Shown here one piece after another: positions 5,167-43,235 of a stretch of DNA of 43,235 nt (position 1 is the stretch's first letter; every line of letters begins with the position of its first letter). Under the pieces are notes generated by a model. That model saw nothing but the letters and a program-made list of their open reading frames with translations, was not told the DNA's origin and made no database searches. The translations under genes were made by a program, and so were the position numbers. The stretch is from Chiloscyllium plagiosum (lineage: Eukaryota), in contig NC_057718.1 in NCBI RefSeq assembly GCF_004010195.1, positions 80,415,484-80,458,718 on the forward strand, in the 5' to 3' direction.

Positions 5167-8100
5167 TGTTGGATAAGGCTGAAGATAACAGGAAGATAAC
5201 ATGATTTGGAGAAGCTGGTGTTGGACTGGGGTGTACAAAGTTATAAATCACACAACACCAGGTTATAGTCCAACAGGTTTAATTGGAAGCACACTACCTT
5301 TCATGCAGTTTTTGAACAAAGTGCAATGTAACTCTGCAAGTACAAATTCACCCCACAAATATATATGTATATATGTGTATGTGTATGTGTATGTATATGT
5401 GTATGTGTATGTGCGAGAGAGCGAGAGGTTGTGACCGTGAGAGTGTATATGTGTGTATGTGAGTGTAGAGTGTCTTAAACCTGTGAGGGGATGCATGTGT
5501 GAGTGTGGGAGTGGGTGTGTTGAGTCCGTGTGTATAGGAGTGCCTATGTGTGTGTGTGCGCGCATGTGTGTTTAGGAGTGTCCATGTGTGTGTATAGTGC
5601 AATGGTGGTCACCTGTAGTGTGACATGAACCCAAGGTCCCGGTTGAGGCCTTCCATATGGGTACAGAACTTAGCTATCAGCCTCTGCTCGGCCATTTTTC
5701 ACTGCTGCCTGTCCTGAAGTCCCCTTACCCGAAGGTCCAAGTTCAAATATCCTGGACCGCTGAAGTGTTCCCCAAGTGAGAGGAAACACTCCTGTCTGTT
5801 GATTGTTGTGCCCATTCATCCGTTGCCGTAGCCTTTGCTCGGTTTCCCCAATGTACCATGCCCAGGGCATCCCTGCCTGCAACGAATAAGATAGGCAACG
5901 TTGGCTGAGTCACATGAGCACCTGCCATGTATATGGTGGGAGGTGTCCCCACGTGTAATGGTGGTATTCATGTCCACACTCTCACACGTCTTGCAGCGCC
6001 TACCGTGACAGGGTTGTATGGAGTTGTCCTGAGAGCCGGGCAGCTTGCTATGAACAATGATCTGTTTGAAGTTTGGCAGTTGTTTAAAGGCAAACAGTGG
6101 AGGTGTAGGGAAGGTCTTGGCGACCTGCTCATCCTCATTGATAATGTGTTGCAGGTCACGAAGAACATGGCGTAGCTTTTCAGCTCCTGGGAAGTACTGA
6201 ACAACGAAGGGTACCCTGTCGGTTGCAGCACGTTTATGGTCGAGTGTGGTGCTAAACAAAACTAAATAAAACTGATAAAACTACACATTGATATTAACAG
6301 GTTTCATCCCATCATCAAACTCACCATGAGCTACTCTCGACTATCTGTCTCATTCTTGGACACATGCATCTCCATCAAGGATGAACACCACAGCACCACA
6401 CTCTACCACAAACTCTCAGACAACCTCACAAATGCTACACTTCTCCAGCTTCCACCCAAAACATATTAAAACAAGCCCTACGTGTACACCGGATCTGTTC
6501 AGATGAGGAAGAACATGACGGACACCTGGAAGTACTCAGGGATGCCCTCAGAAGAACGGGGTACCATGCTCAACTCATCAACCGCCAGTTGCGACATGCC
6601 ACAGCAAGGAACCGTAATGACCTCCTCAGAAAACAGACACATGCTGCAACCGACAGGGTACCCTTTGTTGTTCAGTACCGCCAAACCTCAAACAGATCAT
6701 TGTTTGTAGCAAGCTGCCTGGCTTTCAGGACAACTCCATACAACCGTGTCACGGTAGGCGCTGCAAGACGTGTCAGAGTGTGGACATGGATACCACCATT
6801 ACACGTGGGGACATCTCCCACCATGTACGTGGCAGGTATTCATGTGACTCAGCCAACGTTGTCTATCTTATACGTTGCAGGCAAGGATGCCCTGGGGCAT
6901 GGTACATTGGGGAAACTGAACAAAGGCTACGGCAACAGATGAATGGGCACCGCATAACAATCAATAGACAGGAGTGTTCCCTCCCAGCTGGAGAACACTT
7001 CAGTGGTCCAGGACATTCGACCTCGGACCTTCGGCTGACCATCCCCCAAGGCGGACTTCAGGACAGGCAGCAACGAAAAGTAGCCAAGCAGAGGCTGATA
7101 GCTAAGTTCCATACCCATAGGGAGGGCCTCAACTGGGACCTTGGGTTCATGTCACACTATAGGTGACCACCATTGCACTATACACACCCACACACACCCT
7201 TATAGACACACACACTCCCACACGCACCCCCTCACAGATTTAAGACACTCTACACTCACATACACACATATACACTTTCTCTCACACTCATAACCCCCAA
7301 GCCAGACAGACAGACACACACAAACACACACACACAAAGACCCACATGCACACATGTACATATATGTTTGTGGGGTGAATTTGTACTTGCAGAGTTACAT
7401 TGCACTTTGCTCAAAAACTGCATGAATTTATGTAAGACTCCGTTATCTCACTTTTTAGATTAGAATCAGTCTAAACATTATGGCACAGACGGAGAATACA
7501 GGGGGCTAACACCTTCAACATATTGTCTAGCTAACACCAATTGTTACAGTTAACCTGAGAATACAACCTTTAAAAAAGGTTTTGTAATTTACACATGAAA
7601 GAAATGAAACTATCATGGTATTCAAACAGATGAAAGACTCCACAAAAAAATCAAGATATTTTTCAATGTATAATTTCAGTTACATCCCACTGTAAACTTT
7701 TGCGATAAGTTCTGTGTCTTACAATTATGCCCTCCACAACCATCTGATGAGGGAGTGGCTCTTCGAATTAAACCTGTTGGACTATAACCTGGTGTTGTGT
7801 GATTTTTAAGGAAGATAACAGGAACTGATAAGAGGCCTAACAATGGGCTGCTATGTGAAGGGAAGTATGCGGAGTCAGACAGATCTGTTAATAGTTAAAA
7901 CTACATGAAACCAGGAACTGCTGGCTCTACCAGATAAAGCATACATTGGGACAAAACATTTAGGATTGTACATATGCATGGATAAGTCCCAATAAGACAC
8001 ACATTTGCACAAAACGTTTGGGACTGGTCATGGGCACACATAATTCCAAATAAGGCACATCGTTGATACAGAGACTTGTGTATAAAAACCCTGAAGAAAT

Positions 8101-9337: not shown

Positions 9338-9772
9338 GTCACGGAATGCTGATAGAGGAGGGGAGGGAAATATATCCTTGGTGGTGGGGTCCGTTTGGAG
9401 GTGGCGGAAATGGCGGCGGATGATGCGCTGTACATGGAGGTTAGTGGGGTGGTAGGTGAGGACCAGTGGGGTTCTGTCCTGGTGGCGGTTGGAGGGGCGG
9501 GGTTCAAGGGTGGAACCTTTGAGTGGACTGTCAGAAAGCATTTGACAGTTGTGTTAACTACTGCCCCAATATTAGCCACACCTAGATACGCAAAGCTAAA
9601 TACCTCCCTACCCTTTATCTTAGCCTGCTTGGCACACCTTCCTCATTCCTGAAGAAGGGCTTATGTCCGAAACGTCAATTCTCCTGCTCCTTGGATGCTG
9701 CCTGACCTGCTGCGCTTTTCCAGCAACACATTTCCATCTCTGATCTCCAGCATCTGCAGACCTCACTTTCTC
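9338..9772. mobile_element. Penelope-like composite: minus ORF fragment (9338-9510), unrelated ~90-bp insert, plus-strand pLTR (9601-9772)
   Basis: ORF 9329-9541 DRTPLVLTYHPTNLHVQRIIRRHFRHLQTDPTTKDIFPSPPLSAFR is the Penelope linker; 9601-9772 matches the reverse complement of 42587-42760. Confidence 0.85.
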
Positions 9773-10159
9773 CTTATAAGAATGCAGAATGGGCTTCCAC
9801 AAGGAGTTGTGAAAGTACAATAAATAGAAGTGTTTTGGGTGGGGGCGGTGGTCAGATATGACGGAGAAAGAAAAAGAAAGAACAATATACTTAGGTGAAA
9901 TAAAGTAGGCTGCAAAGAGGTTTCTATGCAATATAATCAATTTGGACTAAATAGTCTTTTTCTGTGGTATATACGTGATTTAATTCAGTAAACTCTTACG
10001 GTCAAGGATTCATCAATATTTTCAGTGTTATTAATAGCTTTTTGCAATGAGTAAGTTGGTAATATCAATTGAATCGTAGAAAATAATGAAGGCAAGTTTT
10101 TCTTGTCATTGCATTATCAGTGATTTTGTGGTGGTACAATATTTTACATCAGCATGACA

Positions 10160-12721: not shown

Positions 12722-12861
12722 GCTCAGGCAGCATCCAAGGAGCAGGAGAATCAATGTTTCAGGCATAAATATTCATCAGGAATTCCTGATGAAACGTTGA
12801 TTCTCCTGGTCTTCAGATAATGACTTGCTGTGCTTTTCCAGCACCACACTTTTCAACTCTG
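12722..12861. mobile_element. Degraded palindromic Penelope pLTR-derived element
   Basis: TCAGGCAGCATCCAAGGAGCAGGAGAATC arm, central CATCAGGAATTCCTGATG palindrome, inverted arm; same family as 1752-1955. Confidence 0.75.
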
Positions 12862-13903
12862 CTACCTTTATATCCAATTGTAAGTTAGCTACCTGGCTGC
12901 ACAAAACCTTAACATTCATGCAGACAGATTGCAATTAAATAAACTAATTTACTTTTATTGTCTGATTTTGTATAGAAGGTGGCAGGATAATTGGTGTTCA
13001 ATATGGGGATGTTTTACCTTTCTGAAAACGTCTTTATCTTGACATCAATGCAGACATTCATTGCCGATCACACCAGTAACACTCATTTACTGGTGATGTA
13101 CATAGTCAACTTTACATAACTAGATTTCATGTTGTAATTCAGATGTACAAAAATTCCATCCTGCTGCCAACATTAGAAACAGTTACACATGAGCCAGCAG
13201 CTGCACTTGGGATCAAATGTGCATGTACCTGCTGTGTTTCCGGTTGGCAACAGGAGTTACAGTGGCCAGTAAAATGCCAGCAGAGGCAGGAAAATGGCGG
13301 GCATGGCACCCACCATCATCATACCTCATCTGTCTTTGCCCTTTCATATTACTTCCTTGACTTGGCTGATTCCATTACAGATACACCAAAATAAAGAAAA
13401 TCCTATCCTTAACCCAGAAGTTATCTTGAAAAATTATACATTACATGAACATGACCTACATCAGTACAGAAACTGTTCAGAGCACACTACCTCTAGATCT
13501 GTTTTCCATAAACTCCAAGAGTATGCGAACCAAATCATGATGAAAAATTTGTGCTTTCTGCACTCAACATCGTATTAATTCTCTGAACTCATAAAATAGG
13601 TAACAATGATTTATATGGTATGGCAGGAGGCATGATTTGTTGGCCATGGTTGGCATGGCAATGCAGCAGGAACCATGAACTGTCTATCTCAATTAGTTGA
13701 AAAAAAACTGCTTAGTGATCAATTGTGCACAACCTAGTCACTTTTTCAACTATTCACAATAAAAGTCTCAGAAGCTGGTGATGCTGGGAGGAAACAAAAA
13801 CAGTAAAATCTTCAAAAAAAATGTTCAACATATGCACAACTACACTAGTCTAGCTGGTTGAGCATGCTATTAGTTAAAATGTTTATTGCTTATTATCTAG
13901 CGC

Positions 13904-14572
13904 TGAAATACCTCCACACAAGCCAAGTCACCATTTCGGAGAGTTCTTGACCCTGACCCAGCTCCCTCAGAGCCTGGTCTCTGAGTGAAAGGATGCCTGA
14001 CACCTGTTTTTTTTTAACCAAGCCCCCCCCTTTATTTACACGGGGAGGGTCTCTGACACTGATCCAGTTCCCTCAGAGCCAGCTCTCAGTGTGAACAGAA
14101 TCTCTGACACTCCTATTTAATTTTTTTTCCCCATATGTGTGCGCAGGTGTGAGACACAGTGAAAGACACAAGGTGCAAGAATCTTTATTCAGTTTCCACC
14201 ACCAGGAAGAAAAGAAACACCCGAGTAGCCAGTGACAAGCAGTGCCCTTCACATCAAAGGGCAATGCTGTGTGATCAATGAAGGGGAGGGCAGGGATTAA
14301 ATCAAAATAGAGTTGGAGGGGGAGATAATGCATTCCACTCCCTGCGGCGCCCACCTCTCCCTGAACAACTCCAGGGTGTCGGTGGATACCATGTGCTCCT
14401 TTTCCAGAGACACCCGGGCTCTAACGTAGCCGCGGAAAAGGGGCAGGCAGTCGGCCGACACTCCTGTTCTTATCTGTCAGCCAGGGCTCTCTGATTAGAC
14501 CAGATTAACACCCCCAATCAGGGAACCATATTCTAGGAGATCTACCTGGCTGACCTCATCACAATCACTACA
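13904..14572 (-). mobile_element. Solo LTR (Gypsy-like) containing a Tx1 insertion and a duplicated segment
   Basis: Minus strand starts TGTAGTGATTG (14572) and ends GGTATTTCA (13904); segment 13950-14008 recurs, diverged, at 14055-14114. Confidence 0.7.
14115..14456 (-). mobile_element. Tx1-clade LINE 3' end (5'-truncated)
   Basis: Minus strand reads ADCLPLFRGYVRARVSLEKEHMVSTDTLELFRERWAPQGVECIISPSNSILI*, resembling Tx1 ORF2 C-terminus; AATAAA near 14185; A-tail at 14116-14128; GACACTCCT at both flanks (14106-14114, 14457-14465). Confidence 0.85.
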
Positions 14573-15182
14573 GTTTCTCCTTTTTTTCCTCTTCCTTCAC
14601 GTATAACATCAATGTTTCTTCGTGTTTTTGTGTCTGTCTGTATGCATGTGTGGATTTTTTAAAGAAGGGAGTTAGACTTTTAACCAATAGTTAGATGTCA
14701 ACAATTCATAGTTATTCACCTGTAGTTAGAGTCTAGTTACTTGTCAAAATTAACAGTTACTTTTAAGGCCAGAAACCTAACCCAAGTTTTGTGTTAACTT
14801 GGATCTATCTGACAGGTACATTTGGGGCTTTGCATATTTTGATAAAACATTTTAACTTATGTATGACTCCAGCAATAGCAAGGCTTGATTCTAGCACACT
14901 ACCCCAGAAAGACTTAACAAATTTAATCTTAAGTTCCTGGAGACTCAGGCCACCTACACACTCTATCAGAAAGAGGATCCTGACCGAGAAGAAATCCAAA
15001 GAAGTAAGTTCCAAAACATTTTTTTTTTAAAAACTCAAGAACAGAATAAGTGATCATGCTTTAGGTTCCATCTTGTGGTTCCTATCACCAAAAATTTGCT
15101 CACACCCTCCTATCAGTCACATTTGCTTGCTTATTTTTAATGGACAGTTCACTTGAATTATGCAAATGTGATCTATTATAAT

Positions 15183-17619: not shown

Positions 17620-18430
17620 GATGTGTACAGCACAGCATTTTAGGATACGCAGCCTACTCTAAGGAGTGTACTGCAAGATTGGTCCAAGCAGCAGAATCAC
17701 ATCTTAAGCAGAAAACCAAAGATGAGTCCTGAAATGTTAATTCTGTTTTCTCTCCACAGATCTGAGGTTTTCCAGTAATTTTTGTTTCTGTTTCACATCT
17801 GCTCCATGATGTCCTGGTCAAAGAATGGGATGCATTGCATCTGGACTCCACTGCAGTAAAGGGGTTGTTTAACAAAATCAACAGCCACAGTTGCAATGGG
17901 TAGCCTTTGTCTGTGACCACTTTTGTAAGGCATCTGGATCCTTAAACACAAGCATTCTCAAGGATTTACATAACATGGCAAATCCAAGTACTGGGTACAA
18001 GCTTCAAGGAAGTGATGACACTCCTGCTCCTCAGTTGCTGCCTGACCAGTTGTGCTTTTCCAGCACCACACCTTTTGACTCTGATCTCCAGCATCTGCAG
18101 TCCTCACTTTCTCCCACTTTTAGGAAGTGGAATCAATGATCACAGATGACTTCCTAACTGACAGAATGAAACCCTTTTCCATTGATGAGTTCAGCTATGC
18201 TTTGATATGGTTCTCTTACGCAATTGCCTTGCACATGGGAAAAGCAAGCAATGTTATCAAAGCCTACTGTTTGGACTGCAACACTGAACTTGTCACAGGG
18301 AAATGAGATGATGTGGTTTGATGTGGCCTAAACTGCATCATTCACAGTTTCGATGTATTTATGGCGAACAATTGAGAGATCGCACACAGAACCCTAGTGG
18401 TTCCTTGGAAGGAACCAATCTCACAGTTTA
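17620..18430 (-). pseudogene. PIF/Harbinger DDE transposase remnant, interrupted by short pLTR-like inserts at ~17728-17796 and ~18021-18115
   Basis: Minus strand motifs in order: GSFQGTTRVLCAISQ; IISFP...GFDNIACFSHVQG; INGKGFHSVS*EVICDH; DKGYPLQLWLL...T..E..CN..H..TR (ORF 17654-17920); LLKM*FCCLDQS..LQYTP..CCAVH. Confidence 0.85.
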
Positions 18431-18634
18431 CTGCAACTGTTGCAATGAGAGAAGACCCAGTTGGTAAAGTGGATACTCAATAGTCTCTACTCGCATGGTC
18501 ACCACAAAAGTGAATAATTTAATCAAAATATGTAAAGTCCCCAGTTTATCTGCCTGATGGAAGCGATTTAACAGAAAACGCTGCCCAGGGTCCTGTACTT
18601 ATCTGTAATAAGCAGTAGTTCTTGATAAGTAAAT

Positions 18635-19938
18635 TGTAATGACAAGAAAACAACTGTGAACTATTGACATATGTCTCGACCAGTTAAAACACAAATCCCC
18701 TTTTTAAGGACTGGTTTGATGGATGGATAGAAAAAACGCGGGCAAACATATTAAAATAGCACCAGCTCAGGTTAGTTAAAATATTTATTTTGGCCAGCCT
18801 GGACCTTCTGGTCTTCAATCTCCTTTCTCCAGATTCTTTCACTTCTTAGTAGGAGGCACAGGGTGATTGGAACATTAAATACAAAGTCTCTTAGTTATTG
18901 ATTAAAGGAAGAAAATAATTGGCTTTCTTCGGGTTTCAGGTATTTCTCTGGTTTATCTGACTCTAATGTTTACCCTTTTAATTATCTTATTTCTAACTTA
19001 TACTATTATAAGATATTGTGTTATGATATATTGCGTAATAGGCTGTCTTTATTAACACATTCACCAGTTCGCTATATTCATTAATACTGGGTTCATGTTC
19101 ATTCATTCATAACCCTTTACTAACCTGTTATTTACTATAACATGGTTTCATTCATCCATTCATAAAACCACAGTTTTGTAGTATCCAAATTTAAAAACAA
19201 CCCAATATCACTGCATTCCTAAACCTTAGTCCCTGCTAACAGAACAACACATCCCTATTAAATCTCCACGAAATATTATAATATTAATCAGTCCTCACCA
19301 ACTATCTCAGACAGAACAATACCAGCCTCATCAAGTCTCCACAAAACATTATAATAACCTGCCCTTACCAACCATCCCCTGGACCTGAATACATTAACTA
19401 CCTATCAACTACCTTTTAACTAGCCATTTTATCCTTTTAAGAAACGAACTGACAAATCAGCGCTTGCACGAAATTGCATGATTGAATGAAACTCATACTG
19501 GCAAATAGTAAATAAATCTTACAACACAGCTGCAGTAAACAGTTTAATATCCTTTAGTCTTTTATTACAATGTTTAACTTATTTAGAGCATATAGGCCTA
19601 GCATTTTTACTAATTATTTACTAATTTAAAATACAAAAGGGCTAACACTTCCTAATTATGCAAGCAGACTGGACAGACATCCCATCAGAAGAAAAACCAG
19701 CATTTAGCACGTTTTAACCCATCCCAGGACATAAGCCCTTCAAACCTTTGTGTACTATGGATAAAACAATGTAACACCATGGTAATGGAATCTTAATATA
19801 TGTAAGAACCATGTATAAAGGGGCTTTTGTAAGAACTGTATTTCAGGATTCTATTGCCGCCTCGAACTTGTGCCGTGATTGCTGAATAAAGAGGTTATTT
19901 TCACCACTCACTGACTTCAGTCGTTATTTGAACACAAT
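18635..19938 (+). repeat. Possible long solo LTR; 5' boundary uncertain
   Basis: TATAAA at ~19814, AATAAA at ~19885, ends ...TTTGAACACA; diverged ~72-bp tandem units at 19236-19379, as seen in U3 regions. No TSD found. Confidence 0.35.
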
Positions 19939-22399: not shown

Positions 22400-22960
22400 A
22401 TTTTGTTTTGCAATTCTTTGGGGACTTGCAGTCTACTCAATCAAATAAGTCTTCATTTTGGATTGTTCAGTAAGTGTCATAATCTCTTTGGAGAACGAGG
22501 CGTACAGAAGTGAAGCAGAAATTATTTACATTTGAGGCTGAGACAACAGGAATCAATATAACAACCCTTGTCTAATGTTTCTATTCGGATTCCGTTAGCT
22601 TACTTTATAATTTGGCACCAATTTTATTTTAAAAAGCAGTTTTTAATTCTAATTCATGCCAAAACAATAAATAGCATTTAATGAGTAACACTACAATAAA
22701 CATACAGGATTATACTAACCATTTCAAATTATGATTAACAAATTTACAACAAAACTGGAAGTCACTATACAGGATTACAATTTTATGGTCATAATGAAAC
22801 ACACAAATTAAAATAACCTCTTCAATTACTTTGAATCCTTTATGTTGTAAAGAAAGACATATTGAAAACGATCAGTCACAGGTAATGTCATCATTAGTTA
22901 GAATCCCAGAATATATTATATAGGGGTGTAGGTTTGCTCGCTGAGCTGTAGGTTTGATAT

Positions 22961-23000
22961 CCAGACATTTCATTACCTGGCTAGGTAACATCATCAGTGG
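22961..23000 (-). ncRNA. Minimal hammerhead ribozyme motif in Penelope pLTR
   Basis: CCA-CTGATGA-T-GTTACC-TAGCCA-GGTAAT-GAAAT-GTC-TGG. Confidence 0.7.
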
Positions 23001-23627
23001 CGACCTCCAAGTGAAGCGAAGCTGTTGTCTCCTGCTTTCTATTTATATCCTTCTCCTGGATGGGGTTCCTGGGGTTTGTGGCGATGTCATTTCCTGTTCG
23101 TTTTCTGAGGGGTTGATAGATGGCATCTAGATCTATGCGTTTGTTTATGGCGTTGTGGTTGGAGTGCCAAGCCTCTTGGAATTCTTTGGCATGCCTTTGC
23201 TTAGCCTGTCCCAGGATAGTTGTGTTGTCCCAGTCGAAATGGTGGTTTTTTTCATCCGTGTGTAGGGCCACGAGGGAGAGAGGGTCGTGTCTTTTTGTGG
23301 CTAGCTGGTGTTCGTGTAGCCTGGTGGCTAACTTTCTTCCTGTTTGTCCTCCGTAGTGTTTGTGGCAGTTCTTGCATGGAATTTTGTAGACGACGTTAGT
23401 TTTGTCCATGGGTTGTATTGGGTCTTTTAAGTTTGTTAGTTTTTGTTTGACAGTGTTGGTGGGTTTGTGTGCTACTAGGATTCCGAGGGGTCGTAGTAGT
23501 CTGGCTGTCATTTCTGAAACTTCTTTGATGTATGGTAAGGTGGTTAGGGTTTCTGGACAAGCAGACCAAACACAGCCAGAAATAAATAGAAAGCAGGAGA
23601 CAACAGCTTCGCTTCACTTGGAGGTCA

Positions 23628-23667
23628 CCACTGATGATGTTACCTAGCCAGGTAATGAAACGTCTGG
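23628..23667 (+). ncRNA. Minimal hammerhead ribozyme motif in Penelope pLTR
   Basis: CCA-CTGATGA-T-GTTACC-TAGCCA-GGTAAT-GAAAC-GTC-TGG: core CUGAUGA/GAAA, 6-bp stem II, stem I CCA/UGG, GUC triplet. Confidence 0.8.
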
Positions 23668-25775
23668 ATATCAAACCTACAGCTCAGTGAGCAAACCTAC
23701 ACCCTAAATCTCAACCTGAGCTACAAACCTTCACAAACCTTGCATATATTATATAACGATGCATAATTGGATGAACTTTGAATGAATTAACATTTCAACC
23801 AATTTATTCTAGTCCTAAATAAATATTAAATTAGCTAATAATCAATAAAAATAACCAAGTAATTTTAAAATTAAACAAAGATGTCTTGTCAATTAGACTG
23901 ATAAAAGTGACACATGAAGAGCAGACCAATAAGATATTCTATTCATCTAATTCTATAATTTCTCAACTTGTTGTGCAGCAACACATCGTTTTTCTTGTCT
24001 TAGATATGTGTATTTACTGGGATGTCTTTACAATTTATTGATAGAAGAGTTATAAACTACAGGCAGAATTCTAAAGGGGCCTGAATGACATGAGTCTTGC
24101 CAGAAATCTGGTAGAATCGTACAGAAGGTACAATGAGTCTTTCCTCAATGTTCAAAACAACTTGTAATAATTGTAGCTTAAGTTCTGAACGTCAAGGTAA
24201 GATGTTCATTAGGCAGCACAAGTTGTCTATTAAGGGCATAATTGCTTGTTAACAACTTTATTAACTGCAAATCTGACCTCATTAATGTGCTGGTTTATAC
24301 CAATTTGCTGCAAGCAAACTGAATGTTGACAACTCTTCATATGCAAGTCAGAATGAGTATTTGGTGACTGCAATTCCCCACTTGCTTCAAAAGGACACCA
24401 GGATTCCATATGCACCAGCCATACCTATCCCACATCCATAGACATAGGCATCCAACATATGCCAGCCTCCAGGAATCCACATGGCACATCTCCAGTTCAC
24501 TTACAGTAAGCTTCTGCACATCAATGCTGCCCCTTGAGCTGCAGTGACAATTGTAACGTAGCACCCATGGACACATATCCATCTCATGAACAGGACCAGA
24601 CTATAACTCCAGGCTGTTCTCTTGGCATACATGCACAGCACCAGTGTCTTTCCATGCCTTTTTGTGCCTTTCCCTTCGACCAGAGGTACTAGGCTCATGG
24701 CACTGCAGTATTGCCTTACTATTTAGGCAATGCAAAGGCAGGAAGCTTGCCATGGCTGTCAGCCATCCTTCGTCAAGTCGAAGGAGATTGCTTTTAGACC
24801 GGGGATCCCAGTACGTTGAGGTTTGCCTTCAATATCAGTCCAGGGGCTTGGATACAGTCAGTCACTCAGGGCAATCAGAGTACGAATCTTCTCCTAACAA
24901 GAGGTAAGGAGCAAATGCAGTTGTTGTGGGTGTGAGCTGGGCTAACGAAATCTGATTCCAATTCTTCACTTTTACCAATCTAGCCTTAAAATTCCAACTC
25001 AAGAGTCAATCTGTCACGGACTACCTCAATGACTGCTCCTGTTCTGGTCGATCATCCTCCTGTCCTGGAGCCACATTCACCTACACTCCAGTACTTATTC
25101 ACAGAGGCAACTCCAGATTTTTCCTCTCAGCGAGATTTAACAAGTTACACCCGGTCCCTGGATTTTCCCTGAACTCTAATCTTGTTCAGCTGTATGAAGC
25201 AAATAATGCTTGTGGTTTTTCAATCCCCACTTTCAACTGTACTGTCCTACAGTTGAGCCATCACAACTTCCAGGCTTTTCTGAAGCCCTGACTCCAACAA
25301 CTAGCTGGCTGATTTTAGATCTTGACCGGAGTTTCAGCAACACAGAGGGGCTTAACTCATGCCCATGGAGAACCAGTGCAATTCAGCTGACTTCCCTGAA
25401 ATACAGCTAACAATCAGCACTTCTCACACACAGTCTACCCCCTATTTCTCTCTCAACCTACTGATCTTCAGTTTGTGTGCGTAAACTTTTGAACTGCCCA
25501 TCTGTGACTCCTGAACTTTCCTGAGTGACCTACTGATAAGCTTGCAATAGATCTTTCTCCAGCTGGGCAGAATTCGATGTTACCATCTGACAACACTTGG
25601 AATGGAGTGCACCTTCAATGTTACCAGTCATAAATAGCTGGCTTGCTCAGTACAAAAAAAAAGAGTTCTGCATAATGAGAAGATTTCATGACAAATTTTA
25701 TTCATGTTTGGTAGTTTATCACAATTCTTAATTATTCACCATTCTCCCAACCTCACCTGTTTATTCAAATTGTCA

Positions 25776-29303: not shown

Positions 29304-29506
29304 CATAGCTGGGGGGCAGGTTGCTTTTAAAAGCACTTCTCTCAGACATGCGCTTACTGCTTGATGGGTGATTACCAGCTTTTTCCTGCGAGCCTGGTCC
29401 TTGACCTTGAGAATTTTTTAAAACACATAGCTGGGGGGCAGGTTGCTTTTAAAAGCACTTCTCTCAGACATGCGCTTACTGCTTGATGGGTGATTACCAG
29501 CTTTTT
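29304..29506. repeat. Perfect 81-bp direct repeat (29304-29384, 29426-29506) with a 41-bp spacer
   Basis: CATAGCTGGGGGGCAGG...GATTACCAGCTTTTT occurs twice, identical on reading. Confidence 0.92.
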
Positions 29507-42570: not shown

Positions 42571-42586
42571 ACATCCTTATATCTAG

Positions 42587-43235
42587 GAGAAAGTGAGGAT
42601 TGCAGATGCTGGAGATCAGAGCTGAAAATGTGCAGCTGGAAAAGCACAGCAGGTCAGGCAGCACCCAAGGAGCAGGAGAATTGATGTTTCGGGCATGAGC
42701 CCCTCTTCAGGAATGAGGAGAGTGTGCCAAGCAGGCTAAGATAAAAGGTAGGGAGGAGGGACTTGGGGGAGGGGCATTGGAAATGCGATAGGTGGAAGGA
42801 GGTTAAGGTGAGGGTGATAGGTCGGAGCGGAGAGGTCAGGAAGAAGACTGCTGGTTAGGAAGGTGGTGCTGAGTTCGAGTGTTGGGACTGAGACAAGGTG
42901 GGGGGAGGGGAAATGAGGAAAACTGGAGAAATCGGAATTCATCCCTTATGGTTGGAGGGTTCCTAGACGGAAGATGAGGCGCTCTTTCTCCAGCCATCGT
43001 GTTGCTATGGTCTGGCGATGGAGGAGTCCAAGGTCCTGCATGTCCTTGGTGGAATGGGAGGGGGAGTTGAAGTGTTGAGCCATAGGGTGGTTGGGTTGGT
43101 TGGTCTGGGTGTCCCCATAGGTGTTCTCTGAAACATTCCGCAAGTAGGTGGCCTGTCTCCCCAACATAGAGGAGGCCACATCGGGTGCAGCGGATGCAGT
43201 AAATGATGTGTGTGGAGGTGCAGGTGAATTTGTGG
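42587..43235 (-). mobile_element. Penelope-like element 3' end (GIY-YIG, 3' UTR, pLTR with hammerhead motif at 42681-42715); runs off the window end
   Basis: CTRCGLLYVGETGHLLAE; ORF 42946-43179 HFNSPSHS..DMQ.LGL...LEKERLIFRLGTLQP; minus strand CTGAAGA-G-GGGC-TCAT-GCCC-GAAAC-ATC. Confidence 0.92.

Follow-up and report, generated by a model that had tools for sequence, protein, structure and literature searches.

An old Tx1-clade insertion at the TATA-box position of a shark LTR, with a probable 3' transduction of the same target

On the minus strand of the 43,235-nt stretch of DNA analysed here (the window), an LTR at 13904 to 14572 is interrupted by the end of a Tx1-clade LINE and by an additional piece of the same LTR, in the order target, LINE, target, LTR piece, AATAAA, A9, target. 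Re-reading of the sequence confirmed that the elements reported in a preliminary description sit at the positions given for them. The LINE belongs to the Tx1 clade, its site in the LTR has been hit repeatedly, and the extra piece is absent from the LTR family. The extra piece has a well supported RNA origin, with its AATAAA, its A9 and the repeated target, and the best reading of its source, which we consider probable, is one-step 3' transduction from a donor Tx1 residing in another LTR copy.

Evidence at the family level came from reads and contigs aligned to window positions 13694-14743 at 80% likeness. Organism A was represented by raw reads (X19, 1934 Mb), and organisms A, B and C by contigs (X1, X5 and X7), 4 of 24 runs in all, and the read-derived tables hold the best 15 of 747 joints, the best 12 of 704 in-between rows and the best 24 of 2757 loose ends. 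The window is vertebrate-type DNA, rich in repeats. An Rfam scan of the whole window gave 0 matches, and no further copy of the LTR or of the Tx1 piece was found within it. Other repeats were present. A hairpin with 81-nt arms (1754-1834 and 1841-1921, 95% complementary, 6 nt spacing) is formed by a short repeat present twice in head-to-head orientation; the repeat also occurs at 9603-9774, 12724-12861, 18021-18113 and 42585-42756. A nested inverted duplication of ~1 kb at 5300-7426 has several arm pairs (86-95%) and similar frames on both strands, which we take to be Penelope-like. On the minus strand, a 210-aa frame (22981-23613) lies inside 22924-23704, flanked by inverted arms of 126 nt (97% complementary); it presumably resembles a Penelope GIY-YIG end, with no supporting match in Pfam. 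At 390-815 there is a decayed LTR-retrotransposon integrase C-terminus with weak matches, below Pfam cut-offs, to SH3_Tf2-1 (E 3.6e-5) and Integrase_p58_C, and at 29304-29506 an exact 81-nt direct repeat with its copies 122 nt apart.

The host LTR showed TG and CA ends, a TATA box and AATAAA in that order, and a high copy number, its 3' end at 13904 being read from the sequence; we assume that it belongs to the Gypsy superfamily. Its 5' part (14457..14572, minus strand) runs from the TG start to the insertion site, ends AACAGGAGTGTC, and has a depth of ~3100 at 14464-14498, compared with 0-2 in the left flank. The family boundary at 14572 was marked by a fall in depth and by 131 X7 contigs with loose ends there (agreement 0.38). 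Immediately before the LTR is a tract with 26 of 28 purines (14573..14600, minus strand), one of 4 such tracts in the window, which by eye is similar to the weak consensus of X7 loose ends behind 14572. It is a possible polypurine-tract remnant, and as such would make the host LTR a 3' LTR. No flanking duplication of the LTR matched at 4, 5 or 6 nt, and no second linked LTR within the window scored clearly above shuffles. The LTR adjoins the end of one copy of an old inverted repeat (14612-14903 and 18463-18749; 189 identities in 300 columns, score 133, shuffles at most 50). The empty site of the LTR was sought via the copy at 18463-18749, and the downstream side gave no signal (score 31; shuffles up to 48). 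The host 3' part (13904..13998, minus strand) runs to the CA end, which was read from sequence, contains no AATAAA, and has a depth of ~270 at 13939-13973.

The insertion site was located by two empty-site joints, 14105->14457 (78 reads, 10 letters shared) and 14119->14471 (66 reads), the second of which reads TATAAA directly before the target. Because these joints represent uninterrupted LTR with TATAAA before the target, the duplicated target is probably ~12-14 nt long, and the LTR-derived piece begins at ~14119, inside the TATA box, which replaces the start of the second target given in the preliminary description. The TATA-box position itself (14467..14472, minus strand), reading TAAGAA here and placed by the empty-site joint, is the putative promoter element and the putative bottom-strand nick site. 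Target copy 1 (14457..14468, minus strand), the 5' target-site duplication, has 10 letters that fit both sides of the empty-site joint. Target copy 2 (14106..14119, minus strand), recognised from sequence and from the same two joints, would be the 3' target-site duplication of the donor. Target copy 3 (13999..14006, minus strand), the 3' target-site duplication, reads CAGGTGTC and falls 2 nt short, with an additional letter at this place in organism B.

The extra LTR piece (14016..14105, minus strand) extends from the target to a putative poly(A) site and is of the majority LTR type, with a depth of ~1900. Its AATAAA was found at 14036-14031 as previously described, but the G run behind it consists of 8 G and not 7. 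The A9 (14007..14015, minus strand) follows 15 nt behind this AATAAA and would represent the poly(A) tail of the inserted RNA. The inner LTR duplication was recovered by blastn (81% over 57 nt, E 3e-9) and had a local score of 60 against at most 29 in 2000 shuffles, so it stands above chance. We checked whether the duplication and the T-run (the A9 on the minus strand) belong to the LTR consensus, and they do not. Reads of the LTR family pass 14028 and 14054 without an A-run, with 195 loose ends before 14028 (X5) and 135, 300 and 258 before 14054 (X1, X5 and X7, respectively), and the depth at 13996-14002 is 14-18 compared with ~1900 in the extra piece. Since the family continues without an A-run and depth is so low at 13996-14002, the extra duplication and the A9 lie outside the LTR family.

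The LINE portion consists of the last 52 codons and stop of a 5'-truncated ORF2 (14297..14456, minus strand), identified by its match to the TX1 protein and by reads that continue upstream, and of an incomplete 3' UTR (14121..14296, minus strand) with AATAAA at 14189-14184, a depth of 5300-6200 and its terminus missing. The assignment to the Tx1 clade made in the preliminary description was borne out by homology of the ORF2 C-terminus to Xenopus TX1. The 52-codon peptide matched the Xenopus TX1 149 kDa protein at 44% (residues 1251-1291 of 1308, E 3e-8) and P0024 at 65%, and P0024 in turn matched TX1 at 41% over 617 aa. A profile built from eight sequences (the window peptide and 7 relatives) matched the TX1 149 kDa protein at 6.5e-36 and an alligator TX1-named protein at 9.7e-30. 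Relatives carry PF00078, and P0026 additionally carries PF03372; the 52-aa peptide alone matched no family in a Pfam scan. The first protein search with the LINE peptide gave a single match, a protein of Hemiscyllium ocellatum that covered 58% of the query at 87%, which makes an orectolobiform shark the likely source of the window. A protein search with the frame crossing the Tx1/LTR junction found nothing. Among 22 representative-library matches (14 scanned), at least P0002 (SEA domains) and P0020 (immunoglobulin domains) were rejected as spurious. Four predicted proteins, pentraxin-like, CutA1-bearing and others (P0001, P0008, P0011 and P0015), contain a piece of the Tx1 ORF2 end, probably through annotation capture of intronic copies and possibly through exonisation.

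The Tx1 copy is 5'-truncated at 14456, has the target repeated at both ends and terminates in the A9. Upstream of 14456, 1512 reads continue as LINE with an agreement of 0.92, and for this reason 14456 is taken as the truncation point. The preliminary description had regarded the A8 at 14128-14121 as the Tx1 tail, which proved incorrect: 3466 loose ends before 14136 continue into further 3' UTR, where this A-run is internal. Only 115 reads cover 14135, compared with 4273 at 14142. By-eye comparison with the loose-end consensus showed that the window copy lacks 7 nt at the A-run as well as the terminus; the Tx1 copy or its donor has lost both the 7 nt and the distal end. The depth of ~5800 in the 3' UTR corresponds to roughly 9,000-15,000 copies, assuming a genome size of 3-5 Gb.

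To what extent this LINE targets one site was assessed from the joints between Tx1 and LTR. The best 12 of 704 rows contained six Tx1-to-LTR joints, five LTR-only joints and one Tx1-internal deletion. The six joints, all from organism C (X7), were 14258->14473, 14258->14470, 14269->14499, 14274->14457, 14353->14458 and 14415->14474, with 5 truncation points and the same orientation as the window copy. By eye, their in-between letters read as diverged or partly deleted target, and on this basis all six (6/6 among the best 12 of 704 rows) enter the LTR at 14457-14461. Taken as listed, 5 of the 6 fall inside 18 of 116 nt (14457-14474; P 5e-4 under uniform placement). These rows were chosen for depth, and the joint table by its nature excludes joints with flanks beyond the stretch. 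The results support independent Tx1 insertions at one LTR site and in one orientation, to which the window locus adds a further case, in agreement with the repeated hits on one site proposed previously. No Tx1-tail-to-LTR joint was present among the best 15 of 747 joints. L1-type endonucleases nick in a T-run, and here the bottom strand would have been nicked in the T-run of the TATA box.

The depth of the Tx1 3' UTR (~5800) is 1.9x the highest LTR depth (~3100), and only 17-22% of LTR sites are unlike the empty site, according to a rough mixture estimate from loose-end agreement. Many Tx1 copies are therefore stacked, or lie in LTRs less than 80% alike, or lie elsewhere, which weighs against strict specificity for the LTR site. 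The available part of one study of Tx1 families calls a family target-specific when one sequence type occurs in >20% of the family flanks (PMC4494074).

Contigs from two further organisms cross the A9 junction. The organism B contig (13694-14081) and the organism C contig (13717-14059) both pass from unique flank through the A9 into the extra piece, with 13 and 14 substitutions, respectively; 66 letters of the former and 44 of the latter lie beyond the A9. Because both contigs cross this junction the structure is not an assembly error, and it predates the split of organisms A, B and C. No listed contig of B or C spanned the inner junction between Tx1 and the LTR piece. A 14-15 nt deletion close to the 3' end of the host LTR is specific to organism A. 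A DNA-pattern search returned 2 loci in metagenome contigs, both 22-nt chance matches in DNA of 61-62% GC, and 0 in viral contigs and 0 in prokaryote genomes. Protein-based locus searches returned three short matches of 18-39 codons, one bacterial and two viral, which were taken as chance. None of these collection scans yielded a donor locus.

In the one-step reading, an abundant Tx1-clade LINE of the shark lineage would use the TATA box of a likewise abundant LTR family as the site of its target-primed reverse transcription, each insertion lying in the sense of the LTR and duplicating ~12-14 nt. A donor Tx1 copy would have occupied the same site in another LTR copy, and its transcript may have run ~100 nt beyond its own end into the LTR and been polyadenylated 15 nt behind the LTR's AATAAA, on the presumption that the LTR poly(A) signal was used. 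This RNA would then have been primed at its poly(A) tail and inserted at the same site of the present LTR, the LINE being 5'-truncated to its last 340 nt. Read-through would be more likely from a donor that had lost its own terminus, although the loss may instead postdate the insertion.

The hallmarks of 3' transduction are present at the locus, with AATAAA at 14036-14031 and the A9 15 nt later, enclosed between target copies at 14468-14457 and 14006-13999. The part of the earlier transduction claim that concerns RNA origin was upheld by these features; the part that concerns a one-step donor origin stands as the best reading, the divergence test being not significant. The extra piece and the host 3' part differ in 15 of 58 columns, 5 of the differences private to the extra piece (at 14090, 14068, 14053, 14052 and 14048) and 10 private to the host, and no differences shared by the two against the family majority were seen in these 58 columns. 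The asymmetry of 5 to 10 is not significant (p 0.27-0.30), and a drift of 8-10% in each copy would let local duplication account for 15 differences in 58 columns (p 0.05-0.19). The divergence of the two copies suits another LTR copy as the source, without being decisive. The extra piece starts TAAAT, with 1 mismatch in 5 nt to TAAAC of the family and 3 to AGAAC of the host, which slightly favours duplication at the donor over a second hit at this locus.

A full-length Tx1 copy would sit 10 nt behind the TATA box and ~70 nt before the poly(A) signal, so the LTR could give it both signals. It is a rather doubtful extension of this arrangement that the LTR serves as a full cassette, in which Tx1 transcripts start from the TATA box and routinely terminate at the poly(A) signal, and target sequence transcribed along with them anneals to the nicked strand of the next LTR and so positions the insertion. 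Visible transductions would then be rare mis-primings at the poly(A) tail, in ~1% of LTR copies or fewer as judged by depth.

The closest competitor to the one-step transduction is a pair of events, in which the site first received, in trans, a polyadenylated transcript of the LTR element, whose joining by homology restored the target, and a Tx1 copy later struck this restored target. We regard this as unlikely. It predicts the same layout, and the LTR site is one that is often hit, as the joints among the best 12 of 704 rows indicate; by-eye counts also put the divergence from the family majority at ~10% for the extra piece and at 5% or more for the Tx1 piece. However, it requires a precise homologous 5' join plus a second hit, and the inner target begins family-like rather than host-like (the same 1 versus 3 mismatches in 5 nt), although the host may have changed later.

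Two further explanations are considerably less probable than this. In one, a single RNA from the 3' LTR of an LTR element carried the purine tract, LTR 5' part, truncated Tx1, LTR piece and A9 together into an older LTR, and the 5' part of that recipient LTR disappeared by loss or conversion. The missing flanking duplication of the LTR and the purine tract before its TG would fit such a transfer, as would the lower divergence of the 5' part from the family majority (~8%, 9/116, versus 17%, 10/58, in the host 3' part), but this contrast is not significant (Fisher p 0.07). The transfer also needs more than 100 nt of target to have been lost or converted, and the 5' depth of 3100 exceeds that of the two 3' pieces summed (~2200), so the 3' region varies more family-wide anyway.

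An event at the DNA level is similarly improbable; here a tandem duplication in place, or unequal recombination of two LTR copies, would have produced the layout, and slippage the A-run. The 15 differences in 58 columns are compatible with an old local duplication, and A runs of at least 9 occur 8 times on the minus strand of the window. Yet such an event leaves unexplained the end 15 nt behind AATAAA, the A-run in place of family letters and the exact resumption at the target, and the two copies have no visible shared derived differences. The least probable alternative is that a Tx1 subfamily has the LTR piece as a constant component of its 3' end, that the piece belongs to the LTR family itself, or that it is an assembly error. 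It could draw on the ~115 reads that cross 14133-14135 and might represent a small sub-lineage with a shortened end, but these are 2.7% of the Tx1 depth, the depth at 14002 is 0.8% of that of the piece, an assembly error is excluded by the orthologous contigs from B and C, and for a high-copy subfamily the proposal is largely refuted.

If the one-step 3' transduction is true, a LINE that chooses its site had its transcript terminated at the poly(A) signal of the LTR that it parasitised, and such RNA returns to the same site. The choice of target would then be linked to expression signals taken from the host element, a connection already discussed for R2, R1Bm and SINEU, and the locus would mark a traceable donor lineage. 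It would also show how a LINE can inactivate LTR promoters while multiplying its own target. A single old, inactive insertion produced by two known processes changes no principle.

A literature search outside repeat databases and subscription journals found, in the sources available, no report of a shark Tx1 family or of Tx1 transduction of an LTR target; Tx1 repeats in the whale shark have been noted, without targets in the part of the paper available (PMC8455134). The nearest relatives in behaviour are the crocodilian Tx1-8_Crp and Tx1-4_AMi, which prefer specific LTR retrotransposons and thus resemble the shark element as Tx1-clade LINEs with an LTR-element preference, and reliance on a transcribed target is discussed in the same source (PMC4494074). 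The shark case differs in its lineage and in its TATA-box site; the main text of PMC4494074, so far as available, gives no in-LTR site and no 3' transduction, and its supplementary target alignments may already show LTR-promoter sites or transductions. Tx1L of Xenopus laevis is inserted in the DNA transposon Tx1D (PMC4494074, PMC1919474). According to the accessible parts of these papers, it shares with the shark Tx1 a homologous ORF2 C-terminus and the targeting of one site in another transposable element, but its target is a non-autonomous piggyBac element and that of the shark Tx1 is an LTR promoter.

For 3' transduction, the portion of PMC7265360 available to us reports the process for L1, R7Ag and R1Bm, and states that R1Bm needs downstream target sequence for accurate priming. 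The likeness is that read-through RNA primed at a downstream poly(A) brings its flank to a new site (PMC7265360). The shark locus itself is a genomic fossil rather than an assay. In contrast to those elements as described there, the flank transduced at the shark locus is the target itself, and the poly(A) signal comes from another transposon. Because the transduced flank is the target, the target now stands duplicated in tandem. The locus is apparently a fossil of two known behaviours, those of an LTR-preferring Tx1 and of 3' transduction, with no new mechanism.
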